Part shown: positions 7,999-61,000 of the stretch, in pieces | Position numbering within the stretch: position 1 is the first letter of the stretch | How the letters are laid out: each line of letters starts with the position of its first letter | Assembly (NCBI GenBank): GCA_050084515.1 | Contig: CM114271.1 | Span: 40,238,001-40,302,000 of the forward strand | DNA: 64,000 bases | DNA from: Blasia pusilla | Lineage: Eukaryota | Reading direction: 5' to 3' | Position numbers and translations under genes: made by a program | The notes under the pieces: model-generated | The model's input: only the letters and a program-made list of their open reading frames with translations | Database searches by the model: none | Told to the model about the DNA's origin: nothing

Positions 7999-8475
7999 TA
8001 AAATAAGGTGAAATCTCTCTCACAACACCATATCATCTCACATGTGTGCACTCTCACATGTCTCTCTCAATGTCAAACCAAATCCACTCTCCTAATGAGA
8101 GGCTTGGGTTACACTCACAAGGCAAGGGACCATAGCTCGGCCGCCTCGTGCCAAGAGGTTCAACAAAGAAAGAATGATCTCTCAAGCTCTCTCCATGGTA
8201 ACCTATGCTCCCAAGTCACCTCCTTGGCTCTTGACATGATATAGGAGATCAAGGGCCACTTCCCAAAATATAATTTTGACCATATACTCAAAACGGTATA
8301 TACCTAAAATAGTAAGTTCTTCAATATGGCTCCAAATGAGCCGAAACGAAGGGGAAACCTGCTCTCTCAAGTTTCCCGAGGCGTCAAAAGGTCATCTTGA
8401 CCTCGTGAGCATGTCCTCTACTACTCGCGAAGGCGATCTACTAGATCTCAATGACTTATCCTAAAAGACGTGACA
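7999..8475 (-). repeat. 5' terminal repeat A1 of copy 1
   Basis: Reverse complement runs TGTCACGTCTTTTAGGATA...CTTATTTTA and matches 14301-14788 and 23654-24187. Confidence 0.9.
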
Positions 8476-13683: not shown

Positions 13684-14300
13684 AATTCCTTGCTCGTAGC
13701 CATATAGAGGCTCAGAGATTTCAGAACTATGATGTAGATACTAAAATATGGTGTAAAAGACCTATTGTATTCTAAGTGCAAGATATTTGCAACAATGCTC
13801 TTCACTGAAGTAACCCAAACCCTAGGCTCAACCCTAAGAGAAACTATAAGCAAAGCCGTGCAAGCTGCACAACATAAACGTGTCACTTACTAGGTGCTAA
13901 AGAAATAAGGAAGCTCAAGGAGGTGTAGATCTGAAGCGTCTTGCAAACCTCAAAAGTTGGCTAGAAAAAAGTGGCAGATAATGCAATGTGTTATTGAACA
14001 CACTAAGATCTAGCATCAACATGCATGAAACATCGTCACGGGTGGAAAAGTAACTCCAAGAGGCTATGGGTGGCAAAGTAACTCCAACGGGCTACGAGGG
14101 AGGCTCCATGAAGACTCTCGGAGACATCCTAAGGTCCCTTATCGTGGCTCAGATTCATGTATAGATTGGAGAGTTCGGACACCAGAGCGGCGGAGACTAA
14201 AACCTGCAGCGGAGAGTGAACGAGGAAGCGCACAAACATGAAGATTTGAGCATGTAAGATGAATATAGCAAACCGAGCAGAGGAATGGAGATTATGAACT

Positions 14301-14788
14301 TGTCACGTCTCTTAGGATAGATCGGTGAGATCTAGTAGAGCGCCTTCATGAGTAGCGGAGGACAAGCTTGGTAGGTCAAGAATGACCTGCTGAGGCCCCG
14401 AGAAACGTGAGAGAGCAGGCTTCCCCCTCGTTTCGGCTCATTTGGAGCCATATTGAGGAACTTACTATTTTAGATAAGTACCATTTTGAGTATGTGATCG
14501 ACTTTATATTTTTGGTAAGTGTCCCTTGACCTCCTACATGAGGTCAAGAGCCAAGGAGGTGACTTGGGAGCATAGGTAACCATGGAGAGAGCTTGGGAGA
14601 GGGGAGGGATATACCTCAAGGAGAGAGAGCTCGAGAGCTCATTCTTTCTTTGTTGAACCTCTTGGCATGAGGCGGCGGAGCTATGGTCTTGAGCTAGAGA
14701 GTGGGTTTGGTTTGACATTGAGAGAGACATGTGAGAGTGCACATATGTGAGAACTATGGTGTTGTGAGAGAGATTGGATCTTATTTTA
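14301..14788 (+). repeat. Terminal repeat A1 of copy 2
   Basis: TGTCACGTCTCTTAGGA...GATCTTATTTTA; direct repeat of 23654-24187. Confidence 0.92.
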
Positions 14789-16099
14789 CAAACAAAGAAT
14801 GAGTGAGTGAGAGAGCTTCACGAGGGAGCTTGCTGGTCACTCGCTCGTTTTGCACGTTGGGGATTGTATTCCCCGTTCAGCGGTTCATGGGAGTGCTCAC
14901 CGGAGCAAGAGCCGCTTAGTTGTGATGTTTCCTTTGCCGATTTTTCGTGTGGAAAAGTGGTGCGCGGAAGCGCTGACCAATTTTTGATAGGGATTGAGTA
15001 TGGGGGCGGATTGCCCCATGCCGGTGCTCTGAGAGCACCATGTAGCTTGCTGATTTGTGTTCTCACATGTTGTACATTTTCGTTGGGAGAAATCAACACG
15101 GAAGCGCTGCCGAATTATGTGTAGGAGAGAGAGACATTTTGTTTTATGACAATCCCCACATGTTTTTACTTGGATGTTCGATTCCAAATATTTTTTGATG
15201 CTCTCGTAGATCGTGAAGCTTTGCACGCTTTGGAATAAACGGTGCAATTTGGAGTTGCAAGAAACAAGTTATGATCAATCTTGCAAAAGTGCCATTGCTA
15301 GGTGATTTTTAGGGTTAAATCGTTCAAACCCTTACCCAGCCGCCACGGCGGCGGCGGCCGTCGCCGTGAGAGTCAGCATCAAAAATCCGCCGTCAATGGT
15401 CATTGGTCAACCGTCAAAATCAACGGTCAACCGTCACTGTCAACGATCCACCGTCGGCTGTTGATGTCGCCTAGCGCTCCACTGAGCCGCATTCGGCCGT
15501 TGTCCACCCTTTTGTTGTTATTGCCGCCATTACGGAGTGGAGGGTCTTCCATGACCATCATTGATTCTGCAACTTGCGCCGCATATGCTGCCGAGTGCCG
15601 TGCTGTTTGTAGCGGTTCCGTTCCGCCAGTGCCGCACCGGATCGTTGGACCTGCACCTCACATCGAGGAGGTTTGAGCAACGTCAGTACGAGAGGAGTAC
15701 GACTTGCTGATTGGAGGAGTTGTCTTCATGATCGAGTTGGGGTCGAGATTTGCAGTTGCCGAGGAGCGATATCGATATTATTGTCAGGTTACCCATTATG
15801 GTCTCTGACCTTGCACGTGTGAGGGATTTCCGGATATTGGGAAGTTATTTGGGATATTAGGTTTCGTGCTGATGCTAGTAGCATCGATGATGTATGGGTT
15901 TAGGGGACATAGATCTGTGTGGGATGTCCAGAGTTGAGGATGGTTTGTCGATGAGACAATAGATTGATTGATTTTCCGCACCACGCTGCTTGTTGCCACA
16001 CAACACACGTCTCAGTGAGAGAGTGGAGATTGAGTTCCGCATGTTTAGTTTGAGTGATTGAGGGATTACTCGCGAGATTGAGAGTGATAATGTGAGAGG

Positions 16100-17580
16100 G
16101 GCACGAGGGCCATCACCGCGTCCTTTCAGGATTTTGAGAGGCGAGGTAGTGGATTTGAGAGTAGCTCTGGAGGGTTTACCCGGAGTGGTGCGAGGTTTCG
16201 AGGGTCTCCACGTGAGAGACCACCTCGATCTCCTTCTGTGTTATCTTCAGACGAGGGGGAGCATATAGAGGAGTGTGTTAGTGATCCACCGTACACATTG
16301 AGTGGTCCTACCAGTTGGGCATACGAGATGGAAGACCGGGGTAGAGGATTGCGTAGGTTTTTGGGTGCTGTAGGCACTATAGATCTACACGACTTTATTG
16401 CGGAGTTTAGGAGTTGGTGTGACTCACAGCGGGCCAGGAACTCTAGAGAGTTCGACCCATTTACAGCATGGAACGGTATGTTCCAACATTTAGAGGGGCC
16501 TCCCATGGACGATTACCATGAGTTCTCCCATAGATATGCCCAGGAGATTGAGGCATGGCGACTCTACTACGACCCACACTAAGTGTCATGGACGGAGCCA
16601 TTCCCAGATGAGGAGGAGGAGTCAAGAGAGGCTACTTCCTCTTCCACTAGTGATGTTTTAGGAGGGGTCACTCGCACTAGAGCAGTTGCATCATCTAGTC
16701 GGGTTCGTCCCAGGTTCAACCACGTGGTTGAGTTCTTCGCTGAGTTGAGGGCAAGCTACCAAGGGCTACGGACGGAGAAGTTGCGGAGCATCCATGACTT
16801 CCAGAGGCGCATGGGTGAGAGTTTGCGTGAGCCTTACACTCGCTTGCACCGGTTGATCAACGTCACTCAGGGGATGACAGAGGCTCAGGAAATCCAATCA
16901 TGGTACGTGATGTTGGACCGGACCCTGCAGACACGGTATGAACACGTTGAGAGATGTTTTTAGGATTGCCGAGAACGTTGACCGCAACATGGCGGAGGAG
17001 AGCGTAGCCACCACGGGTTCTCGGCGAGAGCAGTCACGATTGTGTGCACCACCTGTGCAACAACGTGGACTCCGAGATAGGTTGACTGTGGCACCACGAG
17101 CTCAGGGAGGATACCGGGAGGCCGTGCCACAAAGACCTGCGCCTTTATATGCGGCTCAGCAGCAGCCACCTATTCTTACTTGTTGGTCATGTGGTGAAGC
17201 CCATGATCAGCGCGATTGCACTCGTCAGGGTCACGGACGTGTGCCTCAACATGGAGGAGGAGATGGCGCTGCACCAGGAGGTTATAAGTGTGTCTATTGT
17301 TAGAGGTATGGTCATACACGCGCCAAGTGTTTAAGTTTACATCCTGAGTTATGTTCGGACCGAGGGCTAGAGAGGGCACCAAAGCGAGTAGCCGGTCCGG
17401 GTGGAGCTAGAGATCGTGCATCAGGTGGTCCCTTTGGGGGACGAGGAGCTCGAGTTGCCCGACAGGGTGGTGGAGCTGGCCGTGGAGGAGGTAGAGTACC
17501 ACCACCTAGACGCGCTGAGGGAAACACTGGACGTGAGGCTGGGATGGCTGCTCAGATATAGCAACTACAAGAGCAGATTG
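16100..17580 (+). pseudogene. gag (capsid-like domain plus two zinc knuckles); start approximate
   Basis: FQRRMGESLREPYTRL retrotransposon-gag motif; CWSCGEAHDQRDC and CVYC*RYGHTRAKC knuckles. Confidence 0.85.
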
Positions 17581-18239
17581 CCACTATGGCATTGAGGTTA
17601 CCCGATGCCGGATCCGTGGCATCGATATCATATGGAGCAGCCAGAGATATGGAGGATCTTGGTTGGATGGGTAGGGTTGCCCAGATGGAGGCCGCCGTAG
17701 TTGTGATGCGTGGAGCAGCCGTAGAGTTGGATCCACAGCGAGGGCAAGCCAGAAAAGAGACAAGGCTTCCTCAGTCTTTCACATTGTCCAAAGCGTTGAG
17801 GACCCCATCGATGGGTCGTCATCAAAGTTCATGGAGAGTTGGTGATGTTGTTGGTGTGCAGGCATAGAGGGCGATGGGAGAAGCAAGTGCGACGACTCCT
17901 ATTGTTGATGCTCAGGAGGGGCATATGTCGAGCACATTGTTGGGGGCAGCCACCGTTGTGTATCGCACTTCTTTATTTTCTACTCTCGATGTTATGACGT
18001 TGGGGGGTACGCCGGCCGAGGCTTTTCAGTTGGCCGCTTCACTATGTGAGCGCGGAGTTGGAGTTCCTGCATCACGTTGAGAGGTGATTGCAGAGGAGGT
18101 GATGGACCTGCCTTTGGAGCGGATGCTCGGGCCTTCCATGTCAGATTCATGGCAAGCTGCGACTACTAGGATGGCGAAGAAGCCCGCTAGACCCGCGATA
18201 GAGCGTGCCATGGCTTCTCCTGGTGTTGTATTGCTGGAT

Positions 18240-18626
18240 AAGCGAGGAGAGGTCTTCCAGTTAGTGAGTCCCGAAGGTAGAGCTTTTAGTCCGCAATGCA
18301 TCTTGTTGGATTCAGGAGCGCAACCCCTGATGTTGGGGAAAGAATCATTCAGACGATTGGGCTTGACGAGAGCCGATGTGGAGCCTTGTCCATTCCGGAT
18401 ACAGACATCCTTGGGTGGAGCGAGTACCACACAATATATCCCCCGACAGGAGGCCATGGTGAGGATTCGCCGGGGACATCCTACAAATGAGTCCATGGTG
18501 CGAGCCAAGGCGATAGTGACTGATGCAGAGTCCTATAACGTCTTGGTTGGTGGAGTTGTGTTATACCCGATGGGGTTTTCCCTGGATTACTCAGAGGAGT
18601 CAGCGTCCTACAGACCAGGACGGTAG
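18240..18626 (+). pseudogene. Retropepsin-like aspartic protease
   Basis: ILLDSGAQPLMLG catalytic motif and downstream YNVLVG. Confidence 0.88.
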
Positions 18627-19019
18627 TAAGGTGATGGGAGCCTTAGCTCATTACCCGTTCGATTCACAGGTGCAATGATCGAGCGACGGCTAAGAGAGGT
18701 GGCGACCTTAGCAGCATTTAGCAGTGCCATCACTTGGCCTAGTGGTTTGATTGAGGGACATGTCCATGCAGAGGATACTCCCGTTCCTGAAATTTCTATG
18801 GAGAGGAGTGTTATGGTAGGCGCATCATTTCGTGGAGGAGAGGTGTCGTTGTGGGGCTCGACTGAGGAGCTTCAACGATTGGCAGATGAGCACGTGCAGA
18901 GCGGGTGGAGCGAGGCGTTTGCACCGGAGCATGACGGGTCTAAGGAACCCGAGGTAGCAGGGAGTACTAGGATGACACCCTTGGATACCACACCCATTGT
19001 GTGGTGTATCTCGGAGGAG

Positions 19020-19975
19020 GGTATTTGAGTGTTAGATCTCTTTGGAGGGATTAGCACCGAGTTAGCTGATGTTTTGCAGGCAGGGGTGCGAGTGCAACAG
19101 TACATGTATGTGGAGATTGATGATGTTGCAAGGCATGCTTCACTTCACCATGTGGCACTGTTACGCCTCCGTTTTCCAGACTTGTTGTCTATGTCCACCA
19201 TTCAGGGTCACCAGAGTTCCCTACTGAGGGACATTTCATTGTTGGGGGCATATGACTTGGAGCGGGTAGGGACCATAGACCTAGTCATTGCTAGTTGGCC
19301 GTGTTAGGGCCAATCGAGTGCTGGACGAGATAGCGGGTTAACTGACACTCGAGCCAGGTTGTTTTGGGAGATGATGTGGATCTTGCGACATTTACAAGAG
19401 CATCAATCTCGTTCTCTAGCATACATTTTGGAGAATGTGCCAATTTTGGGCGATTCAAGGTCCCGCGTGGTGATGAGTGTACATCAGGTGCATGCATGGT
19501 TTAGCTCAGCAGTGTTGTTAAATGCGGCGAGTGTTGGTTCACGAGCACATCGCCCGCGTCTTTGGTGGACCAACTTGGTACCACACGAGGTGTTACCGAG
19601 GGCATATGCGAGAATGGAGCATCCCTCCAATTTGTTGGTGGATTCTATATTGGATCCGGGTCGTCGATCACAAGCAGTGAGGCACGATGATCGACCGTTG
19701 TTGATTGTGGTGAACAGGATTGGCAGGCCACAGGCAGCCTTTCCCATATTGGTGAGTTTTCCCGCTTCATATGCATTCAAGGAGGCCGGAGGTGGCTTGG
19801 TTTGGGATGACCAAGTACAGAGGTTGGTGGAGCCCAACCCCGATAAGCGAGAGCGAGCGATGGGATTCCCCATAGGAGTGACTACAATACCGTCACTATC
19901 AGAGGCATTGCGACGTCATGTCTTGGGTTAGGCGATGGATCTGAACTTCTTGACATGGATTTTCAACTTAGGAGT
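19020..19975 (+). pseudogene. C5 DNA cytosine methyltransferase domain, DNMT3-like, inside pol
   Basis: Motif I VLDLFGGI, II YVEID, IV DLVIASWPC*G, VI ILENV, VIII AHRPRLWWTNL, IX RERAMGFP, X RRHVLG*AMD. Same reading frame as protease and RT. Confidence 0.93.
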
Positions 19976-20279
19976 AGCTGAGTAGCGTTTTTTGAGGATG
20001 CGACAGATCACCGCTGTTGCGTTGGTGAGCCCCATGCCTACCGAGACGGTTAAGGCAACGGCTGGGGGCGAGATCCGAGGAGATCAACACACCAGGGGTG
20101 ATCGGAAGAGACACCCTTGGACTTCTTGGGATGTTTTGCAGGTACACGAGGAGATGATAGGCACAACATCAAGTGTGGTTTCAGATACTACATGTGGAGA
20201 TGAGAGTTCTATTGTCTGAGACGGAGTTGCACCATAGCAACCACCGACACCTGCGCCAGAGAGTCCTACCGTAGTCACG

Positions 20280-21733
20280 ATGGAGACTTGGGAGCCAGAT
20301 ATGGGCCCTAAGTTGACAGGAGGAGAGCGGCGCCAGATACACCAATTCCTTAGGAGTTATAGGAGGTGTTTTGCATTTAGTATGCATGATTTGGGTACGC
20401 TGAAGGGTCCAGGGATCCGCATTGAGTGGTCGAGTGACACGCTGATCTTCCGACAACCCTACAGGTGCAGTGACATGGAGAGGGCTCTGATTCAGAGTAG
20501 GAGCCAGGACTTGGTTGGAGCAGGACTAGTCGAGATGTTGCATGGAGAGTATGCATCTGCCACTATCATGCCCGCCAAGAAGGATGTGCATGGAAACTGG
20601 ACGGATAGGCGAAAGTGTGGAGATTACCGACTTATCAATCGGCAGACGAAGTCCGATAGGTATGCCATGCCCACCCTTGAGGAGATCTTTCATGCAATTG
20701 GGCATGCAAAGGTCTTTAGTTCATTGGATTTACGATCCGGATACCATGAGTTGCCTATCAGATTGGAGGACAGGCAAAAGACGGCATTTTGGGGTATCGA
20801 TCCTCACGGGAAGGATTGTTTGTACCAGTGGCGGTTCTTACCATTCGGGTTAAAGAACGCCCCCGACTGAGTTTGAGAGGGTCATGGATAGGATCTTGGC
20901 AGGTCTAGAATTTGCTAGGTGTTATATTGATGCAATCGTAGTCTTTAGCGCCACGGTTGAGGAGCATGAGCGACATCTAGAGGAGATGTTTCGACGATTG
21001 CAGTTACATGGGCTGAAGCTACATCCAGGCAAATGCAAGTTCTTCTACGACCAGATTGAGTACTTGGGTCATACAATATACCCTGGGGGCCTTGGTGTGC
21101 AACAGACGAAGGTAGGGGCTATTTCACGCAATCCACGCCCTACAGATGTGAGCCGCGTTCGTGCATTCATCGGATTGGCCAACTACTATCGGCGGTACGT
21201 CAAGGGGTTCAGTTCGATTGCAAAGCCACTGACCTTGCTGACCAAGGTGGATCATGAGTGGCACGGGGGATGAGCAAGAGCGAGCATTTCAGCTGCTCAA
21301 GGACAGATTGACGTCCGCGCCTATCTTGAGGAGACCGATCAAGGGGCGTCCTTTCTAGTTGCACACAGATTGGAGCATGTTGGGGCTTGGAGCTGTGCTC
21401 ACCCAACATGATGATGAGGGTAGAGAGTTTATGGTGGCTTACGCTAGACGTTCGAACAACATTGCAGAGGCAAAGTACAACTTGTATGAGGGTGAGTGCT
21501 TGGCTGCAGTCTGGGCTGTCGCACATTTCACGTGTTACTTATTCGGCAACCCCTTTACCATCATCACTCATCATCAACCACTACAGTGGTTGATGATGTC
21601 CAACAAGCTTACAGGGAAGCTTGCGAGATGGGCTCTATTGCTGCAGGAGTACGATTTTCAGGTGGTACATAGACCTGGGACGCTCAACCAGGATGCAGAT
21701 GGGCTGAGTCATAACCCATGCCCGAGTCAGTGA
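20280..21733 (+). pseudogene. Reverse transcriptase and RNase H
   Basis: DYRLIN, LDLRSGY, LPFGLKNAP, YIDAIVVF, YLGH, HTDWS, EGECLAAVWAV, DADGLS. Confidence 0.96.
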
Positions 21734-22024
21734 GATGCGACTGGAGCTCGATGGCATGGAGAGAGTGATGAGGAGTCAGTGCCAGGATGGCACGCGTCAG
21801 CCTTTTTAGGCTTGTTGTCTATGGAGAGCCAGAGTGTGGAGACTTTGATAGCGAGGTCCTTGGATCTTGAGGCCAGTGAGCAGACGACATGTGGCCGAGA
21901 TATTCATGATGATGGAGTAGTCTTGGAGTATGTGCGTACTGGCAACGTTGCGAGCATAGTGGATTCTAGAGAGCGGGATTGGATCCTACAGCGGGCCAGA
22001 CGGTTCCGCTAGGAGGGGAGGCAT

Positions 22025-23190
22025 GTGTTGCGAGTGTGGGAGGATGGTAGAGTGCGTGTAGTGCCTCATCCTTCGCAGAGAGCTCGTTTGGTGCATCATC
22101 CCCACGAGGAGTTGGGTCATTTTGGAGTGAAGCGGACATATAGCTTGCTCCAGATTCAGTATTGGTGGCGAGGCATGCAAACTGACGTTCAGCAGTTTGT
22201 TGCCAGATGCATGGTGTGTGATCGAGTCCGAGCATCGTTCTATGCTCCAACTTTCTAGTTGCATCCACTTCTGATCATGGGTTTAGGTTATAGATGGAGT
22301 TTGGATTTTTTTGAACCTTTGCCTTTGACGGAGCGCCATAATCGTTATGTGTTGGTGATGGTCGAGAACTTCTTGAAGTGGATAGAGTTGGTTGCATTGC
22401 CTGAAAAAGTGAGTGAGGGAGTAGCGTATGCCTTCCTAGATCGAGTGCTGAGTCATTACGGTGCACCAGCTGAGGTGTTGATAGACCACGGTACAGAGTT
22501 CCGCGGGGAGTTTTAGGCCTTGTGCGATCAGGCACTGATCGACCACCGCACTACTTCATGAGATCATCCTAAGGCGGATGGACTAGCGGAGCAGGTTGTG
22601 CACACGGTGAAGAGAGGACTATGCAAGTATGGCTTGTAGAGAGGTCACCTAGGAGATTGGGACCTTCAGTTGCCGTGCTTTGTGATGGGATACAGATTCA
22701 GCAAGCAAGCATCCTTAGCGTCTTTCTCACCGTACTTGTTGCTTTATGGCCGTGAGCCCGATTTACCTGCGGCCGTTCGTCGAGATACTGGTGAGGTGTT
22801 GAACCTTGATGACCCTGATGTAGGGATGCAAGCATGTTGTGAGAGGGCTGAGTTGTTTTGGAGAGTGATGCCCATGGCGTTTGAGAACTTGGCGATTGCG
22901 CAACATCGGGATACGTTGAGGTATGCAACTATTCGGGGAGGTGGTTATCGACCTACTATTCGGAGGTTTCATCAGGGAGACTATATCTACTTGCAGCAGA
23001 CGACACCCACGACATTGGATGTGACTGCAGGGCGCACCATCTTGACAGTGCGTGAGGTTTTGCCATCCGGTGTTCTCTTATTGGAGGGACAAGATGGTAT
23101 GGTTTGGAAGGGCCATGTGCGTAATTGTGCGCCATGTCATCTTCCGAACATTGACGATACAGTTGATCCGAGCTTAGCAATAGTTTCTGC
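22025..23190 (+). pseudogene. DDE integrase (HHCC zinc finger, core, C-terminal domain)
   Basis: HPHEELGHFG...CMVC, WSLDF, IDHGTEF, DGLAEQVV, FSPYLLLYGREP. Confidence 0.93.
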
Positions 23191-23199
23191 AAGCTTGCA

Positions 23200-23341
23200 G
23201 TGTATGTTGTGTGGTTCTGCCCGTGGTGCATCCACTATGCTAGTCTATGATGGGTGTTCGAGAGGATGGCATATGGCATGTTTGACGCCACCTCTTACTA
23301 GGGTTCCTCAGGGACGATGGATGTGTCACGGATGTATATAG
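23200..23341 (+). pseudogene. PHD finger fused to integrase C-terminus
   Basis: CMLC...MLVYDGCSRGWHMACLTPPLTRVPQGRWMCHGC: a C4HC3 pattern with one Cys changed to Tyr (TGT>TAT). Confidence 0.9.
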
Positions 23342-23508
23342 AGTTGGTAGTTCTACATTCTAACTTGTGTCTCTGACATGGATGACAAGAAGGCGACTAG
23401 CGATGGGGCCACATGAGCACCCGGCCTTCTTGCTCTTAGCGTCCGAGAGATGTATGTCATGGTAGGTAGGGTTAGATGGCTATCTGGAGTTAGAGGGACC
23501 TAACCACC

Positions 23509-23522
23509 AAGTAGGGGGGCGA
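23509..23522 (+). promoter_or_regulatory. Polypurine-tract-like sequence before B1
   Basis: AAGTAGGGGGGCGA; the equivalent in copy 3 is AGGGAGGAGA (58747-58756, minus). Confidence 0.55.
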
Positions 23523-24314
23523 TTGGATATATTTTGGTACTTCTTGTCTCGTTGTTTGGATGCCATGAGTTAGCATGTGATTGTGTGTGTTTGTGTGTGT
23601 GTGTTCGGTGACATCGATGTATGTTGTGTAGCGATATGTATGCGCACGACAACTGTCATGTCTCTTAGGAGACGTGACAACTCTACTAGATCGGTGAGAT
23701 CTAGTAGAGCGCCTTCGTGAGTAGCGGAGGACAAGCTCAGTAGGTCGGGGATGACTTGTTGGGGCCCAGGGAAACCTCAGAGAGCAGGCTTCCCCTTCGT
23801 TTCGGCTCATTTGGAGCCATATTGAGGAACTTACTATTTTAGGTAAGTACCATTTTGAGTATGTGATTGACTTTATATTTTTGGTAAGTGGCCCTTGACC
23901 TCCTACATGAGATCAAGAGCCAAGGAGGTGACTTGGGAGCATAGGTTACCATGGAGAGAGCTTGGGAGAGGGGAGGGGTACACCTCAAGGAGAGAGAGCT
24001 TGAGAGCTCATTCTTTCTTTGTTGAGCCTCTTGGCATGAGGCGACGGTGCTATGGTCTTGCTTGCCTTGTGTGTGTAACCCAAGCGTCTCGTTAGGAGAG
24101 TGGGTTTGGTTTGACATTGAGAGAGATATGTGAGAGTGCACACATGTGAGAACTATGGTGTTGTGAGAGAGATTGAATCTTATTTTATTGGAGATATTTT
24201 GGTACTTCTTGTCTCGTTGTTTGGATGCCATGAGTTAGCATGGGATCGTGCGTGTTTGTGTGTGTGTTCGGTGACAACGATGTATGTTGTGTAGCGATGT
24301 GTATGCGCACGAAA
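23523..24314 (+). repeat. 3' composite terminal repeat B1-A2-B2 of copy 2
   Basis: B (TTGGAnATATTTTGGTACTTC...GCGCACGA(C/A)A, ~130 bp) occurs twice, flanking a second copy of A. Confidence 0.92.
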
Positions 24315-25705
24315 AACTCCGGAGCGGCGGAGACTTCAAAGACTTCAAACACGACAACACGGGGGTCCCCGAGTGTGGAGCTTCAAAGTTTGAGCGCTGC
24401 ACGGGAATGACGACCAGTTGGAGTCCCTAAGTGTGGAGCTTGAGTGCAATCGAGACTCGAGAATACAAGGAGACTCACAAACGAGCGTGTCAGTCAGGAC
24501 TGGACCAGAGCAAGCGAGTCGTGAGTCTGGACTGTACGAGAGCAACGCGAGAGTCAACCAACTCAGGCCTAGATGAGAGCAACAACAGCTCAGAAGCGTG
24601 CGCAATAGTCAAGAGACGGGAAGGACGAGAGCAGCAACAGGGCGCACAAGAGTCGGGAGACGGGACTAGACGAAAGCCAAGGAGCAGGGAGGTATGCAAT
24701 GCCAACCCCTCCGATCCCGCCGGAATGTCCCCCTCGGGCGTGATGCTGTCAGCTCCTCACCTCCACGGTCCTACCAATGCCCACACGGATACCCCTTAGC
24801 CGCCTCACCCGACCTGGTGGCTTGCCCTACGATGGAGGGCTTAGATTAAATTAATCATGACACTAACAATGACTAACCCTCCCACTCTTCCAGTTTTCCA
24901 GCAACCGGTAGGTGATGCGGCAGTAAACCGGAATGAGTGGTATGGCCGACAGCCAAAAACCAATTCCGTCACATATTCCTCAGGACTCAGCAGAAAACCG
25001 TCCAATCCCTTCCCGGCCAGCAGGTTTCCGGGCACTCTCCGGCCCCTGTCGGAATTGCAACCGGCATTTTCGAACGCAGCCCGGAATTTTCTAATTTTTC
25101 CCGGTTAGGTGAACACGTAACCCCGGTTCTGCCCGTTCATCGCCCCCATCCGAGTTTGTCGGCGCCCCCTATTTTAGAAGAGGTTGGGGGGGGTATCTAA
25201 AGAGTTTAGCGGGCTCGTCGGCATCCGAGTTTGTCGGCGCCCTGTTCTAGCGGCAGTTTGCGGGTGGCGCTATTGTAGTGCGGAGGAGGCAGCGCTTTCA
25301 GCTGCATCGTCGTCGTCGTCCATTCTGAAGGAGAGTGAGTGAGTGGAGGAGCGATCGATCGCACTTTCTCCGAAGAAAAGTTGCGCAGTTTCGCGGATTG
25401 TGACGACGCTGAGAGAGCGACGGACGATTGTGTTGCGCTGAAGGAAAAGGGGAGTAATTGAGCGGACGCGGATCTGAGGATCCGAGAAGGCGACGCAATC
25501 GGAGGACGGAGTGTGAAGCGGAGGGCGGATTGCTTCGTTTTTTCGGAGGGCGAATCGGGGGCGCTTTGCGTGGGGAGTGGGGAAGTGGGGGAGGGAAGCA
25601 GAAAGGAGATAGGTTGGGGAGCGGCGGAGAGCGTTTTAGTTGTTCTTTGACTAAGGAGGAGTCGGGGGCGTTCTTCGCAGTAGGAGACAGATCAATCTGG
25701 GCACG

Positions 25706-36761: not shown

Positions 36762-37490
36762 CCGAGATGGAGATGAAGATGAAGAAGTGCTGCAGCAACC
36801 AGTGCCAGCTCGTCCCACCGCTGGAATGGCCGTGACCATCGCCATCGCCATGCGTCCCCGAGGCCTTGAGCTCGAGCTACCTCCTCTGCACTCCTGTCGC
36901 AAATCCCAACACCCCCCAAAACCCTACACCTCTCCACCCCTCGTACCCATCCCCCCGAAACCCCAGTCGCCTTCAACTTAGCCTAACCGCAGAATAACGA
37001 CGCCCACCAATTATTACTATCCCCCTCATGCCCTCAACTCTGGGTTCCACTTCCCAACCCCCTCAGAGAAATCGCACCTGCTGCTCACAGAGGAAAACCC
37101 AGAGGGAGAGAGGGTGGTCTATGGTCCGCTTGTCGACCAGAGGGTTGGGTTTCCCATCACCCGCCTTTTACTAAGGCTTCGCTTTTCTTTCCACAGACGA
37201 CATCTCAGCGCACAGAGGAAGGAGACAGGAGTAGAGAGTTACCCACATAGGAAGGGAGAGAGAGAGAGAGAGAGAGGGAGGGAATGTGTGCCTGTGTTGG
37301 CATTTAGATCGTGGAGTGACGCTCACGCGGACCCCAACATACTGAACTTCAACAGACAGGAGGAAGAAGACGGACATAGAGAGGCCTTCTTCCTCTTCTG
37401 TACAGACAAAATCCAAACCCTCGAAGGAACGGGAGAGGGAGAGAGATTTGCTTCTGTTTCTTGATTCACGGAGGAGAGAGAGAGAGAGAG
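36722..37490. promoter_or_regulatory. Divergent promoter/5'UTR region with (GA)n microsatellites between bS6 and PRP4
   Basis: (GA)n tracts near 36723-36755, 37255-37277 and 37474-37490; the genes are head-to-head. Confidence 0.5.
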
Positions 37491-56605: not shown

Positions 56606-58015
56606 ATGGCACCGTCTAGAAGGAAACGTGCCTCTTGTAGAACTATCAATCCACACAACGTACATGCCACTCGAGGAATACTTAACAAAATTTTCCTGGC
56701 CAAATGCAGACACAATGCAATTTTAAAAAATACTACAAACCACAAACTATCATGTAGACCTACTGCCTATCCCTGGCCACTAATTGAGCAAATGATGGCA
56801 AGGTGGGAAGCTCACTTTTCTGGATTCATAACCAAGATGCAATGTTGCGGTTATTGTGGTCGTGGTTGTGTCATCTATTGCAACCCCCAATCCAAAATGT
56901 GTACTATCACTTATGGCCAACATCCACCATATGCTTGATGTAATGGATTTCTCCTCCCTTATATTATACCAAGATCTGGTGAATTCTTTATATGTGACTT
57001 GTGTTCCACAACGCAACCACGTCGTAGCTTTAATGTCTATATGACACCATTGTATATTAGGTAGGTATTAGCTGTTGATCCCCTACACCTACAAAAACTT
57101 TATATTGTTGATTCAAGAATGGGGATCCAGAGAAAATTCAATGGATTTCACAAGGGATTCTTTCATGCTTCATCCCTGCTGGACTCGCCCCTTATTGGAT
57201 GGAACCATAATACTCAAAGTACCCAAGAATCTGAGAACAGTATTGCTATTCTCAAATAGATCATGGAGGTAAATTTTTGGATCAATCCACTCTACAAAGA
57301 CTATAAGGCTCTACTTGAACTTCCCGGTCCATCTTCCGGACTAGTAGTTTTGCCTAGCACATTAGTGAACAAGATTCTGCATTCTTTCCAAGAGAAGGGC
57401 CAACTTACTCAAAGCATGTCATATGATCCATATCAGTTGGACTTAAACATACTACAAGATGTTTCTTATTCACTACCAAATTGTAGACCTAAATCTTCTG
57501 ATATTTTTGACAATGGTTCTATCTGTATTCGCACTGGTGCAATTCAAAGATTTCTAATTGATTCCTCTGGTATTTCTATTGATAAATGTCTTACTATAGA
57601 GACAACAATTTTCCCTTTTCTATTTCTAGGATACTACACTAGTGCGCAATCTTTTCTTGAGTATATCAAATCAAGGACTAAACAATTATTTAGTGTCTTC
57701 TCTTTGTATAAGCCTTTCTCTCTTATTAGGCACCAACTCCGTCAATCTATTTCACTATGTTCCATTGCTCGTACCTTTATTCTGTAGAAAGACCTCGAGA
57801 GATTAAGGAAATATCACCCTGATCTTCATGAGGAAGATCTCTATTATTACTTATCTAAGCATTCATTAAGTCCTCAAATTCCAGCCAGCCTAGCTTGGCA
57901 TAGGCGTCATCTCCGTGACCTAAAAGCCATGGTTCACCATCTAGGCATGCCACATTTATTTTTTAACACTTACTTCTGATGAGGTTTCTGAGACCCGCTG
58001 GATTGAGATCTATCT
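56606..58015 (+). pseudogene. Helitron2/Helentron-like Rep N-terminal region, truncated by Gypsy copy 3
   Basis: IETTIFPFLF, then IPASLAWHRRHLRDLKAMVHHLGMPHLF/TLTSDEVSETRWIEI, resembling Rep motif 1. Confidence 0.7.
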
Positions 58016-61000
58016 TGCGCATACACATCGTTGTCATCGAACACACACAATCCCATGCTAACTCATGGCATCCATACACAGAGGCGAGAAGTACCAAACT
58101 ATCTCCAATTAAAATAAGATCAAATCTCTCTCACAACATTATAGTTCTCACATGTGTGCACTCTCACATGTGTATCTCAATGTCAAACCAAACCCACTCT
58201 CCTAATGAGAGGTTTGGGTTACACACACAAGGCAAGCAAGACCATAGCTCCGCCGCCTCATGCCAAGAGGTTCAACAAAGAGAGAATGAGCTCTCAAGCT
58301 CTCTCTCTTGGAGGTATACCCCCTTCCCTCTCCCAAGCCCTCTCAACGATAACCTATGCTCGCAGGTCACCTCCTTGGCTCTTGACCTGTTGTAGCGGGT
58401 CAAAGGCCACTTCCCAAAGTATAAAGTCAACTATCCCCAATATGGAAAATTACCCTAAATAGTAAGTTTCTCTATATGGCTCCAAATGAGCCGAAACGAA
58501 GGGGAAACCTGCTCTCTCAAGTTTTTCGGGGCCTCAACAGGTCATCCCCGACCTCTTGGGCATTTCCTCCACTACTCGTGTAGACGCTCTGCTAGATCCC
58601 ATTGATCTATCTTAACAATCATGATAGTTTTCGTGCGCATACACATCGCTACATCGTTGTCATCGAACACACAAACAAACACACACGATCCCATGCTAAC
58701 TCATGGCATCCATACAATGAGGCGAGAAGTACCAAAATATCTCCAATCTCCTCCCTAGCTGGTAGTTAGGTCCCTCTAACTCCAGATAGCCATCTATCCC
58801 TACCTACCACGACATACATCTCTAGGACGCTAAGAGCAGAAAAGTCACGTGCTTATCTGGCCCCATCGTTAGTCGCCTTTCTGTCATCCATATCACGAGA
58901 AAAAGTTAGAATCAAAACCTACCTAATATCTCCTCTATGTACATCTGGGACACATCCATCATCCCCGAGGAACCCTAGTGAGAGCCCTGTATGAGGAACC
59001 CTCTGTAGTTCTCCTCGTGTATCCGCAATACAATTTCTGCAGGTTTGCGTTGTATTGCATTCTGCATTGTATCCGGCGCAACAGTAGTTTCTGCACGCTT
59101 GTAGAAACTACTATACCATCAATTTTAGGAAGGTGACATGGCGCACAATTACGCATGTAGTCCTTCCATACCATACCATCTTGTCCCTCCAGCAAGAGAA
59201 CACTAGATGGCAAAACGTCACGCACTGTCAAAATAGTGCGCCCAACAGTCACATCCAACGTCGTCGGTGTCGTCTGCTGCAAGTTCACATAATCTCCCTG
59301 ATGAAACCTCCGGATAGTTGGTCGATAACCACCACCCTGAATACTTGCATTTCTCAACGTATCCCGATGTTGCGCAATCGCCAAGTTCTCGAACGCCATG
59401 GGCATCACTCTCTGAAACAACTCAGCCCTCTGAGAACATGCTCGCATCCATACATCTAGGTCATCAAAGTCCAGCACTTCACCAGCATCTCGACGAATAG
59501 CCGCGGTAAATCTTGCTCTCGGCCATAAAGTAGCAAGTATGGTGAAAAAGACGCTAAGGATGTCTGCCTGCCTGTTGAATCTATATCCCATCGCCAACCA
59601 CGGAAACTGGAGGTCCCAATCTCCTAGGTGACCTCTCTACAAGCCATACTTGCGTAAATCCCTCTTCACCATATGCACAACTCTCTCTGCTAATCCATCT
59701 GCCTTGGGATGATCTCGCAAAGTCGTGCGGTGGTCAATCAAGCGCCTGATCACACAAGGCCTCGAACTCATCGTGAAACTTCATACCTTGGTCTGTCACC
59801 ACCTCAGCCGGTATGCCATAATGACTTAGCACTTTGTCAAGGAAGGCATAAGCTACTCCCTCACTTGCTTTGTCAAGCAATGCAACCAACTCGATCCAAT
59901 AGAAGTTCGCCAATCCCATGAATGTGCGAACACGACTCACATCTGTAGGGCGTGGAATACGTGAGATAGCTTCTACCTTCGTCAGCTTAACACCAAGGCC
60001 CCCTGGGTATAACGTATGACCCAAGTACTCAATCTGGTCGTAGAAGAACTTGCACTTGCATGGATGTAGCTTCAGCCCATGTAATTGCAATCCTCAAAAC
60101 ACCTCCTCTAGATGTCGCTCATGCTCCTCAACCGTGGCGCTAAAGACTATGATGTCATCAATATAACACCTAGAAAAATCCAGACCAGCCAAGATCCTAT
60201 CCATGACCCCTTGAAACTCAGCCGGGGCATTCTTTAACCCAAATGATAAGAACTGCCACTAGCACAAAAAATCCTTCATGTGAGGATCGATGCCCCAAAA
60301 TGTCGTCTTCTGCCTGTCCACCAATCTGATAGGTAGCTGATGGTATCTGGCTCGCACATCCAATGAAATGAAGACCTTAGCATGATCAATCGCATGAAAG
60401 ATCTCCTCACGGGTGGGCATGGCATACCTATCGGACTTTTTCTGCATCAGGTATAACATTGCTTCACCAACCAAGACGTTGTAGGACTCTGCATCAGTCA
60501 CTATCGCCTTGGCTCGCACCACGGACTCATATGTAGGATGTCCCGGGAGAATCCCCACCACAACCTCCTATTGTGTGATATACTGTGTGGTACTCGCTCC
60601 ACCCAAGGATGTCCATATCCGGAATGGATAACGCTCCACATCGGCTCTTGTCAAACCCAATCCTCTGAATGACGCTTTCCCCAAATTAGGGGTTGCGCAT
60701 CTGAATCCAACAAGACGCGCTCCGGACTAAAAGCTCTACCTCCAAGACTCACCAACTGGAAGACCTCTCCTTGGTTATCAAGCAACACAACACGAGGAGA
60801 AGCCATGACACGCTCTATCGCGGGTCTAGCAGGCATCTCCGCCATGCTAGCAGCCACAACCTGCAATGAATCTCATGTGGACGGCCCAAGCATCCGCTCC
60901 AAGGGCAGGTCCATCACCTCCTCTGCAATCACCTCAGAACGTGATGCAGGAACTCCAACTCTGAGCTCACATAATGAAGCGGTCAGCCAGAAAACCTCGG

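Follow-up and report, generated by a model that had tools for sequence, protein, structure and literature searches.

Split direct repeats on a DDE-integrase Ty3/Gypsy retrotransposon of Blasia pusilla and on related elements, with a proposed replication route through an internal palindromic junction

A 64 000-nucleotide stretch of Blasia pusilla DNA (hereafter the window) contained three old, broken copies of a Ty3/Gypsy LTR retrotransposon of roughly 10 kb, an identification that is well supported. In place of the two equivalent LTRs of that group, with integrase ends as outer ends, a PBS beside the 5' LTR and a PPT beside the 3' one, the element has a repeat A only at its 5' end and B-nn-A-B at its 3' end. 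These are split direct repeats of DIRS type (A1...B1-A2-B2), and we found them in the window and in 13 distinct relatives. The arrangement is not due to chance, since those 13 related elements come from other sources, and the data support it as a family design, speaking against both an accidental tandem and a nested insertion. Our best model, which we hold to be moderately probable and which is partly inferred, is that cDNA with joined ends is opened by the integrase at a palindromic site in its interior.

Repeat coordinates were obtained by BLASTN of positions 14001-24700 against the window together with alignments. Both upheld the A...B1-A2-B2 layout that a preliminary description had given for copy 2. 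The start that it placed at 14301 also stands, whilst the end at 24318 does not: the element ends at 24314, and the AACT at 24315-24318 is target duplication. The features of copy 2 are as follows.

14301-24314 (+): copy 2, whole element, A1 ... PPT-B1-AC-A2-B2
14297..14300 (+): left 4-bp target-site duplication AACT, matching 24315-24318
14301..14788 (+): A1, 5' terminal repeat; starts TGTCACG, ends CTTATTTTA; 94.0 % substitution identity to A2
14609..14614 (+): TATA-like box, 28 nt 5' of segment S
14638..14652 (+): segment S within A1, complementary to the PBS; putative transcript 5' end and self-primer
14789..14803 (+): PBS, directly 3' of A1; predicted from complementarity to be of self-priming type, matching no tRNA 3' end
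19308..19931 (+): C5 DNA-methyltransferase (DNMT3-like) remnant in pol; Pfam PF00145, E 2.3e-4, under the curated cut-off
20238..21273 (+): reverse transcriptase (RT), two broken ORFs; Pfam RVT_1, E 8.6e-9 and 4.3e-14
21359..21733 (+): Gypsy-type RNase H; Pfam RT_RNaseH, E 7e-31
22067..22640 (+): integrase, HHCC zinc finger and D,D,35E core with stops inside; by-eye reading, frame 21701
23201..23338 (+): PHD finger, integrase C-terminus; Pfam PHD, E 1.9e-8
23509..23519 (+): polypurine tract (PPT) AAGTAGGGGGG, directly 5' of B1; none before A2
23522..23651 (+): B1, ending ...CACGACA; 95.1 % identity to B2
23652..23653 (+): 2-nt spacer AC between B-end CA and A-start TG, the middle of the palindrome GACA-nn-TGTC
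23654..24187 (+): A2, from BLASTN and alignment
24188..24314 (+): B2, 3' terminal repeat; ends CGAAA (family form CGACA)
24315..24318 (+): right 4-bp target-site duplication AACT, matching 14297-14300

The other two copies lie on the opposite strand.

8475 down to 1, the window start (-): copy 1; begins TGTCACG, 5' flank unrelated
7999..8475 (-): A1 of copy 1, PBS-like sequence next
64000 down to 58011 (-): copy 3, with 3' end PPT-B1-AC-A2-B2
58011..58760 (-): 3' end parts of copy 3: PPT 58760-58750, B1 58746-58629, spacer 58628-58627, A2 58626-58110, B2 58109-58011

Alignment showed that copy 1 runs from A1 into internal sequence shared with copy 2, with no B there. Its start at TGTCACG beside an unrelated flank and the B1-A2-B2 end of copy 3 were likewise as first described.

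The Ty3/Gypsy affiliation is indicated by Gypsy-type RVT_1 and RT_RNaseH domains in the window (Pfam), the HHCC/DDE integrase, the TG..CA termini and the 4-bp target duplication, a length within the 4-6 bp usual for the group. The top match with a solved structure was the Ty3 Gag-Pol polyprotein (E 2e-94), and the closest named proteins were those of the liverwort Marchantia polymorpha. Intact relatives keep the domain order protease-DNMT-RT-RNase H-IN-PHD; protease and DDE integrase are kept across relatives, in which the integrase domains PF17921 and PF00665 are present, and most metagenome relatives are broken, as are all three window copies. Membership of a green-lineage group of such elements is well supported, the marks of that group being the PHD finger on the integrase and the DNMT3-like domain in pol. 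The latter lies 5' of the reverse transcriptase, as expected of the Gypsy-DNMT3 lineage, and occupies the same place in the relatives P0017, P0103 and L001. The remnant at 19308..19931 matched residues 340-552 of Klebsormidium nitens KFL_009030040 (BLASTP, 39 % identity, E 3e-40); as this copy is broken, enzyme activity is not implied. Homologues of the integrase C-terminus (n=109) carried the domains rve, Integrase_H2C2, RVT_1, RT_RNaseH and PHD, with PF00145 listed for several. The tyrosine recombinase domain PF00589 was absent from the domain lists of all 109, and Pfam returned no match to it in 24 ORFs of copy 2 (both strands) or in six long proteins of relatives. The interval 14804-19300 (4.5 kb of copy 2) gave no Pfam match at all. 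The motifs in frame 21701 and the search of the 24 ORFs thus agree with the preliminary description in finding an HHCC/DDE integrase and no tyrosine recombinase. Its proposal of a hybrid with tyrosine-recombinase elements is not supported: the proteins are ordinary Ty3/Gypsy ones, accompanied by TG..CA ends, 4-bp duplications, a PPT and apparent Tf1-type self-priming.

Among 80 related metagenome loci, 13 distinct 3' ends displayed B-nn-A-B, in addition to the two in the window. Two families that split deeply share the arrangement, the flanks being unrelated, and B1 and A2 were separated by 2 nt in every case (AC, GC, GT or AT in reads of organism A). All 12 distinct complete 5' ends passed from flank directly to TGTCA and none contained B, which goes against the possibility, raised at the outset, that most copies carry B+A at both ends. 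It had also been envisaged that B2 is a separate tandem insertion. In the four complete elements, the identities of A1/A2 and B1/B2 were 94.0/95.1, 92.3/93.8, 89.0/89.1 and 89.6/89.5 %, so that B1/B2 are as diverged as A1/A2 in each, indicating that B2 arose with the insertion and not later. The A2|B2 joint varies within the same family, being exact, -2, +1, complex, lacking 27 nt or lacking most of A2; it looks to have been made anew at each insertion and resembles an end-joining scar.

A further 15 distinct relatives had 3' ends with a single B, stopping exactly at GACA next to unrelated flanks. Single-B and B-A-B forms were mixed in a tree of 32 3' regions (11 changes versus a shuffled mean of 10.9), and three single-B elements had the target duplications TGTT/TGTT, TACA/TACA and GGTT/TGTT. 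Short-read assembly of the metagenome contigs could have produced some of these single-B ends, by walking through collapsed repeats. The intact relative L015 has a second element, roughly 80 % similar, after B-nn-A, which represents either a chimeric contig or a tandem, the latter not predicted by our model.

Elements of the family end in TGTCA...GACA. Across seven complete elements the adjoining 4 bp matched at 25 of 28 positions, compared with 5-9 of 28 in eight shifted registers examined as a control. Four-base duplications were found in all seven, contrary to DIRS-type insertion, and in combination with the TGTCA...GACA ends they point to DDE integration. They adjoin the A-start and the B2-end, not the A2-end. 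The two end sequences adjoin nowhere but at the internal B-nn-A boundary, where they form a 7+2+7 palindrome. As this junction alone holds both (GACA-nn-TGTCA), new ends must derive from it, in line with the early suggestion that the B1|A2 junction is the source of both ends.

A G-run PPT adjoins the B-start in all related 3' ends examined. In all six copies carrying A1, 12-21 nt following the A-end are complementary to a segment (S) located 143-181 nt upstream, and this S:PBS complementarity is kept by three different sequences in three subfamilies (covariation). Only 0-2 of 500 shuffles reached the observed score (0/500 for copy 2). The predicted fold of copy 2 pairs S with the PBS, and that of the L059 leader contains a 15-bp S:PBS stem (z -5.67). 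Judged by these complementarities, priming looks to be by an ordinary PPT and Tf1-type self-priming. Since the PPT adjoins the B-start and the apparently self-priming PBS adjoins the A-end, the reverse-transcription unit should be B-nn-A, from which the integration unit, A...B, is offset. Four of the six copies with A1 have a TATA or TATA-like box 21-32 nt 5' of S, a distance that would suit a transcript start there, and none was evident in copy 1 or L044; the relatives L059 and L036 carry GTATAAAAGG about 32 nt before their S. The family is abundant in organism A and transcribed on the sense strand. In each of the three RNA runs of this organism reads crossed the B-nn-A junction, the most frequent joint being represented by 43, 65 and 44 of them, and its read tables displayed no clear transcript start at S.

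From these features the following replication route can be proposed. RNA would begin at S in A1 and read through B1-nn-A2. In the B-nn-A unit, copied to both cDNA ends, U3 would run from B through nn into the first part of A and R/U5 from S to the A-end, and ordinary self-primed reverse transcription would yield (B-nn-A)-body-PPT-(B-nn-A). The A-end and B-start of this cDNA would join, either in a molecule resembling a 2-LTR circle or through end joining during integration, and the integrase would open one internal GACA-nn-TGTC site to produce the insertion A-body-B-nn-A-B. This form would be the sole possible template for the next round, since it alone retains the A promoter part downstream. 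Single-B elements would be non-replicating derivatives, arising when the half-sites at the A1-start and the B1-end are used, or through later B1 x B2 deletion. We infer the joining step solely from how the A2|B2 joint of old copies looks and how it varies between them, to which later small indels could contribute. A circle would contain two identical internal sites, and opening of the other one predicts A-B-nn-A-body-B, seen in none of the 12 distinct 5' ends, an asymmetry that the model does not explain.

The same repeats could in principle belong to an ordinary LTR element, with A as the LTR, in which B, the segment preceding the LTR, was secondarily duplicated in tandem after insertion, or to a nested or tandem pair. 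B is short (about 130 nt), partly GT-rich and an easily duplicated sort of sequence, and the window offers just two 3' ends; nevertheless we consider this extremely improbable. A tandem or nested B copy after insertion is contradicted by the recurrence of B-nn-A-B in the 13 relatives, which fall into two deeply split families and whose flanks are unrelated, by the matching divergence of B1/B2 and A1/A2 in all four complete elements, by target duplications at the A-start and B2-end instead of the A2-end, and by a PPT positioned before B1, not A2. Very unlikely, too, is a true DIRS/PAT/Ngaro-style element whose tyrosine recombinase, encoded in 14804-19300 or supplied in trans, acts on circular cDNA. 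The layout is that of PAT, Ngaro, TOC1 and SymbioDIRS, and nothing from Pfam occupies 14804-19300; against this stand the consistent absence of PF00589 from the copy 2 ORFs, the six long proteins and the 109 domain lists, the TG..CA ends with 4-bp duplications, and the presence and conservation of protease and DDE integrase.

A purely reverse-transcriptase route, in which additional template switching, or another plus-strand primer located at B|A, generates a linear cDNA that is already A-body-B-nn-A-B, would dispense with both circle and end joining. It would account for the missing mirror product A-B-A-body-B (0/12 5' ends) and would let the integrase work on true DNA ends, as usual; amplification of DIRS-1 via linear single-stranded cDNA is reported in one study (PMC7192593). 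However, the B|A boundary has no primer-like sequence and is not purine-rich, the repeats begin and end where the PPT and PBS lie, so that these define the cDNA ends, and the A2|B2 joint varies between insertions, unlike a templated copy. We regard this route as unlikely. Less plausible again, and distinctly unlikely, is that the basic unit is A-body-B without any repeat, released when the internal half-sites of a unit-length cDNA, open-circular or linear, are cut. Copies with B-A-B would then be more-than-unit-length by-products, likened to tandem endogenous pararetroviruses, which alone can yield terminally redundant RNA. The 15 single-B ends stopping exactly at GACA by unrelated flanks fit this proposal, as do the three single-B elements with target duplications, and third among the solved relatives, after a pair of Ty3 entries, comes 8r0s, a chain with the title 'Enzymatic polyprotein', which we take to be a caulimovirus protein. 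Yet single-B copies form no separate lineages on the tree, and transcription from S would drop the first part of A, presumably leaving them unable to act as templates. Moreover, B1 x B2 deletion yields an identical product, and some single-B ends may be assembly artefacts.

The topology A1-body-B1-A2-B2, with an internal B|A junction equivalent to joined ends, is that of PAT, Ngaro, TOC1, kangaroo and SymbioDIRS. All of these encode a tyrosine recombinase, and to our knowledge tyrosine-recombinase retroelements are without protease or DDE integrase and make no target duplication on insertion. The window family differs from them in its DDE integrase, protease, TG..CA ends and 4-bp duplications. 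With respect to the junction, Panganiban and Temin reportedly identified the retroviral 2-LTR circle junction as an integrase substrate in 1984, and foamy-virus integrase is said to cleave the LTR-LTR junction (Delelis et al., in 2005). Like the retroviral junction, the window site is a palindromic CA-nn-TG at which both end sequences abut; cutting after each CA would recess the 3' ends and leave overhangs of 2 nt. Retroviruses have this palindrome solely in the dead-end circle. The window family, by contrast, carries it permanently within the repeat, and it is the circle-type joint (A-end|B-start) that occurs in the genome.

Self-priming is described for Tf1/Sushi and plant Tcn1 Gypsy elements in PMC6317226. 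In the window element the PBS is complementary to S, the putative transcript start, and not to a tRNA, which would fit the same mode of priming. Integrase acts at the ends of two equal LTRs in Tf1/sushi and Tcn1-type elements, whereas the window family has its integrase ends within the repeat unit.

The window element is related to KnitGypsy-Dnmt3 of K. nitens, for which the legend to Fig. 4c of de Mendoza et al. (2018, Nat Commun, PMC5890265) gives DIRS-like repeats on a Gypsy body. The A...B-A-B layout on such a body is thus already in print once, for an algal relative, and is not unprecedented for Gypsy elements. The two share a DNMT3-like domain 5' of the reverse transcriptase in Gypsy pol and A-coding-B-A-B repeats, the K. 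nitens layout by published description only (PMC5890265). Besides the DNMT piece, KFL_009030040 matches the integrase C-terminus (53 %). The window copies differ in host lineage, in being broken and in their PHD finger, the partial K. nitens record being without one. Target duplications, PBS/PPT positions and a replication model are not given in the accessible sections of the KnitGypsy-Dnmt3 account (PMC5890265). Apparently new, therefore, are the recurrence of the layout in 13 distinct relatives with 15 more ending in a single B, the TGTCA...GACA ends with 4-bp duplications, the offset PPT/PBS frame, the equal A and B divergence and the variable A2|B2 joint.

The arrangement of the element copies was resolved by BLASTN of 14001-24700 against the whole window, by two alignments and by direct reading of the sequence. 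Together these bore out the layout first described for copies 1-3, the three broken copies of one Gypsy element in the window, in which end repeats are split between an A1 at the 5' end and B1-nn-A2-B2 at the 3' end (nn being a 2-nt spacer). The reasoning of the preliminary description was sound overall and the split-repeat finding is real. The three copies show a mutual likeness of about 85 % by BLASTN and have broken reading frames throughout. In copy 1, A1 is followed by internal sequence like that of copy 2, with no B.

Features of the element copies in the window
14301-14788, + strand: A1 of copy 2, TGTCACG...CTTATTTTA
between A1 and the polypurine run, + strand: body of copy 2, about 8.7 kb
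19308-19931: sub-threshold C5 DNA-methylase match in copy 2 (Pfam)
20238-21273: RVT_1 in copy 2 (Pfam)
21359-21733: RT_RNaseH, Gypsy-type, in copy 2 (Pfam)
frame 21701: integrase HHCC finger and D,D,35E core in copy 2 (read directly)
about 23201-23338: PHD finger in copy 2 (Pfam)
23509-23519, + strand: polypurine run AAGTAGGGGGG of copy 2
23522-23651, + strand: B1 of copy 2, last bases CACGACA, followed by the two bases AC
23654-24187, + strand: A2 of copy 2
24188-24314, + strand: B2 of copy 2
8475 down to the window start, - strand: copy 1, TGTCACG start with unrelated flank
window end down to 58011, - strand: copy 3, with a 3' end of polypurine tract (PPT)-B1-AC-A2-B2

Host genes lie between the element copies at 37380-39298 (+ strand; a PRP4-like domain, then WD40 repeats) and 47497-49422 (- strand; a 641-aa open frame with a Nup133 N-terminal domain). 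Directly downstream of copy 2, the segment 24319-26000 is element-like, with a G+C content of 0.54 and a positive GC skew, against a G+C content of 0.31-0.45 in other spacers; copy 2 may have inserted into a further repeat here.

The element belongs to the Ty3/Gypsy elements, within a DNMT3- and PHD-bearing green-lineage group, a placement based on its Pfam domains, homologues, domain order and matches to Ty3 and Klebsormidium nitens. A database search with the integrase C-terminus identified 109 homologues, the best named of which were from Marchantia polymorpha (74-77 % identity), with others from Calypogeia, Sphagnum, volvocine algae, Chromochloris and K. nitens. Their precomputed domains comprised rve, Integrase_H2C2, RVT_1, RT_RNaseH and PHD, with DNA_methylase in several, and none of the 109 domain lists contained a phage-integrase (tyrosine recombinase) domain. 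Likewise, no tyrosine-recombinase match was found in 24 copy 2 ORFs (both strands) or in six long relative proteins. Intact relatives displayed the order protease-DNMT-RT-RNase H-integrase-PHD, the best solved relative was the Ty3 Gag-Pol polyprotein (E 2e-94), and the DNMT-like ORF of the window shared 39 % identity with the DNMT region of the K. nitens protein (E 3e-40). In one intact relative of 2182 aa (L069, 4860-11405), RNase H extends to residue 711 and the integrase zinc finger starts at 1390; the roughly 680 residues separating them have no Pfam match, and the 14-kb contig of L069 showed neither repeats nor the junction motif.

An alignment of 13 related polyproteins was used to collect 80 loci from metagenome contigs. 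To survey their layout, 49 loci were compared with themselves, boundaries were read directly, a motif-anchored search was run on the full set of 80, and the A and B sequences of three subfamilies served as BLAST queries against these 80 loci and the window. The GT-rich B of one family was missed by low-complexity-filtered BLAST-short and recovered by motif-anchored alignment and unfiltered BLAST, and the mutated junctions of L043 and L056, to which a narrow junction regex was blind, were read by eye. Ends of the form PPT-B1-nn-A2-B2 followed by flank were present in 19 of 80 loci, corresponding to 13 distinct elements once same-flank contigs were removed, and in two loci the contig stopped after B-nn-A. 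A single B after the PPT was observed in 19 loci (15 distinct), B stopping exactly at GACA before unrelated DNA. All 12 distinct complete 5' ends (ten loci and two in the window) passed directly from flank to TGTCA with no B on either side of A1, and the ordinary arrangement of B+A at both ends, which the preliminary description had named as evidence against its reading, was absent from them. The split-repeat layout is a feature of the clade. The distant relative L070 (3251-11320; 31 % identity) is an ordinary Gypsy element with 892-bp LTRs at 97 %, a TGTAAC start, a tRNA-Met-type primer-binding site (PBS; TGGTATCAGAGC) and a PPT immediately upstream of the 3' LTR; with its equal LTRs it represents a conventional outgroup to the split-repeat clade. 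Another locus, L015 (8835-10912), contains an intact 2082-aa ORF and PPT-B(57 nt)-GC-TGTCATG, followed by the 5' part of another element, collinear and about 70-80 % similar; it represents either two different family members arranged head to tail with a common junction, or a chimeric metagenome contig.

Substitution identities were compared between the repeat pairs of four elements. The A1/A2 and B1/B2 values were similar within each element and both pairs therefore date from insertion. B2 as a later tandem addition, an objection raised beforehand, is excluded by B1/B2 being as old as A1/A2.

Substitution identity of repeat pairs
Window copy 2: A1/A2 94.0 %, B1/B2 95.1 %
L026: A1/A2 92.3 %, B1/B2 93.8 %
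L036: A1/A2 89.0 %, B1/B2 89.1 %
L059: A1/A2 89.6 %, B1/B2 89.5 %

The spacing of B1-nn-A2 was 2 nt in every case, nn being AC, GC, GT or AT. The joint between A2 and B2 varied among insertions of one family: L024, L047 and L078 have an exact joint, L043 and L068 lack two bases, L056 and L036 have one base more, L059 combines a deletion with one inserted base, and the window copies and L026 lack 1-4 bases. It has the look of a joint newly made at each insertion from two DNA ends, to which small later indels could contribute. Shortened forms of A2 were also observed, namely in L016 (2210-2803), where A2 without its last 27 nt lies between B1 and B2, and in L027 (4517-4942; = L071), where B-start is joined to no more than the initial 75 nt of A; these look like joints from incomplete cDNA ends, or later deletions.

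The A start was always TGTCA(T/C)G and the B end always (C/T)GACA, constituting 7-nt inverted repeats. When the 4 bases flanking TGTCA on its outer side were compared with those flanking GACA in seven two-ended elements (four B-A-B and three single-B), 25 of 28 positions matched, against 5-9 of 28 in eight shifted registers, and copy 2 is flanked by AACT on both sides. The TG..CA ends and 4-bp duplication are the product of a DDE integrase and show DDE-type insertion with A-start and B-end as the ends. Tyrosine-recombinase elements are not known to make target duplications.

The signals for reverse transcription lie elsewhere. In each of the 3' ends listed, a G-rich polypurine run lay next to B-start on its upstream side, 0-5 nt away, and B2 starts at the same point as the B that follows the PPT. 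In all six A1-bearing copies, the 12-21 nt directly after A-end (PBS) show complementarity to a segment, S, which lies within A 143-181 nt before A-end, with a score reached by 0-2 of 500 shuffles. The S:PBS pairing covaries, as the sequences differ among three subfamilies. In L059 the leader fold contains a 15-bp S:PBS stem (z -5.67), and the pairing persists, though with bulges, in the decayed window copy (z -1.8). Judged by this predicted pairing, the PBS arrangement is putatively of the Tf1 self-priming type, which PMC6317226 describes for Tf1/Sushi and plant Tcn1. A TATA or TATA-like box was present 21-32 nt upstream of S in four of the six copies, in canonical form (GTATAAAAGG) in L059 and L036, and none was evident in copy 1 or L044. 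The repeat boundaries set by priming are B-start and A-end, and the unit expected at both cDNA ends is therefore B-nn-A; the promoter part of A, upstream of S, can only be recovered from A2.

These data show that the internal B-nn-A junction holds both end sequences as a palindrome, that the priming signals are at B-start and A-end, and that B2 is contemporaneous with insertion. A further reading, possible but short of probable, is that a whole green-lineage Gypsy clade has shifted its integrase recognition ends from the outer edges of the LTR to an internal palindromic site, productive integration proceeding obligatorily via end-joined (circle-like) cDNA linearised by the DDE integrase. This would be a natural case of the route in which a circle junction is the integration substrate, a route that has long been disputed; it would be convergent in topology with tyrosine-recombinase retroelements, and would equip the element with a downstream terminator region of its own (B2) that is absent from the 5' end. 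In the mechanism regarded as most likely, RNA extending from S in A1 through B1-nn-A2 would yield [B-nn-A]-body-[B-nn-A] by ordinary self-primed reverse transcription, after which A-end and B-start would be joined, either in a 2-LTR-circle-like molecule or as free ends following cleavage at one site. Integrase would cut after each CA of one GACA-nn-TGTC site, so that, as after normal processing, the 3' ends would be recessed and the overhangs 2 nt long, and would then insert A-body-B-nn-A-B. Single-B and B-A-B elements were intermixed on a tree of 32 3' regions (11 changes against a shuffled mean of 10.9), and single-B elements are therefore recurrent dead-end derivatives. Their origin may lie in integration straight from the half-sites at A1-start and B1-end, in B1 x B2 deletion or, for some of the contigs, in collapse during assembly.

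The main unexplained point is the mirror form, A-B-nn-A-body-B, which is expected from opening of the circle's other identical site and was seen in none of 12 5' ends. Its absence would be accounted for if reverse transcriptase alone made the final linear form directly, but we regard such a route as unlikely, as no primer signals are found at the boundary between B and A and the variable joint of A2 with B2 fits it poorly. Random opening of a 2-LTR circle was rejected because it predicts the absent mirror form. Also rejected were action of integrase on both internal half-sites of linear cDNA, which would yield only A-body-B, and repair of branched intermediates, which would give B-A-body-B or A-body-B-A, neither of which was seen. 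Under integration from end-joined cDNA, a possible benefit, offered as speculation, is that the joint of A-end with B-start, and any terminator spanning it, would exist only at the integrated 3' end.

In topology the element resembles PAT/Ngaro/TOC1-type tyrosine-recombinase elements and SymbioDIRS, yet unlike these it has no recombinase and possesses a DDE integrase, a protease and target duplications. Conversely, it fits Gypsy by its proteins and integration signature but not by the definition of two equivalent LTRs. Troyka was rejected as a relative based on the CG..CG termini and 3-bp duplications given for it in the relevant part of PMC12440569. The legend to Fig. 4c of de Mendoza et al. 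(2018; PMC5890265) records a DIRS-type repeat structure with Gypsy-typical domains for KnitGypsy-Dnmt3, a K. nitens Gypsy element with a DNMT3-like domain, whilst the accessible portion of a preprint (10.64898/2026.05.21.726589) mentions Gypsy-DNMT3 and contains no repeat layout. That legend was the only account of a split-repeat layout on Gypsy found in our literature search, which turned up no replication model; the REM1 (Chlamydomonas) paper and the 2018 supplements, possibly with element maps bearing on priority, fell outside the search. Because the layout has been in print for a Klebsormidium relative since 2018, the element is not a new kind but a liverwort-type representative of one with a single earlier record. 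Within the literature searched, the clade-wide evidence for the layout, the 4-bp duplications, the offset between priming and integration frames, the putative self-priming PBS, the variable A2-B2 joint and the abundant single-B derivatives appear to be new, and together they make a specific, testable case for DDE-integrase integration from end-joined cDNA. The frame offset predicts DNA intermediates in which A-end and B-start are joined, and GACA-nn-TGTC as a site cut by integrase. Confirmation of these predictions would show that a DDE integrase can act from an internal junction site, and would mean that DDE-integrase and tyrosine-recombinase retroelements came to the split-repeat layout independently. 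In practical terms, LTR finders built on the assumption of two equal LTRs will set wrong boundaries for split-repeat elements or overlook them.

Reads from four runs sharing one species label, one of DNA and three of RNA, were aligned to 14101-24500 at a likeness of at least 85 %. Approximately 149,000 of 12.4 million sampled DNA reads fell on this stretch; the element family is abundant in the source organism. Loose ends before A-start were present in 678 reads with varied flanks (consensus agreement 0.34, among the rows listed), and B-end was joined to A-start via CA followed by AC, GC, or G/A then T in at least about 570 DNA reads, though such short-read junction counts give no proportions of B-A-B, single-B and solo forms, as A1/A2 and B1/B2 cross-map. 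The whole element was covered in all three RNA runs, in each of which pairs in sense orientation (as in usual stranded libraries) were 10-50 times commoner. The B-nn-A junction was represented in RNA by 43, 65 and 44 reads for the commonest joint among those listed. Rows for RNA beginnings and ends near the repeats held 5-12 molecules only, and no transcript start or end was readable in these tables.

Differences between the reads of all four runs and copy 2 across 14101-24500 comprised C>T at 562 places and G>A at 570, with 265-304 for A>G and T>C and 49-94 for each transversion class. This C>T/G>A excess is the pattern expected from deamination of methylated cytosine, in a family with a DNMT-like domain. 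An RNA-only joint at 20402-21473, skipping 1070 nt in the RT region, was supported by 9, 23 and 3 RNA reads and by no DNA reads among the joints listed. It is not a canonical intron, as its ends are AA..CA, and could represent an expressed copy that bears the deletion and is missing from the DNA reads sampled, an artefact of template switching, or processed RNA.
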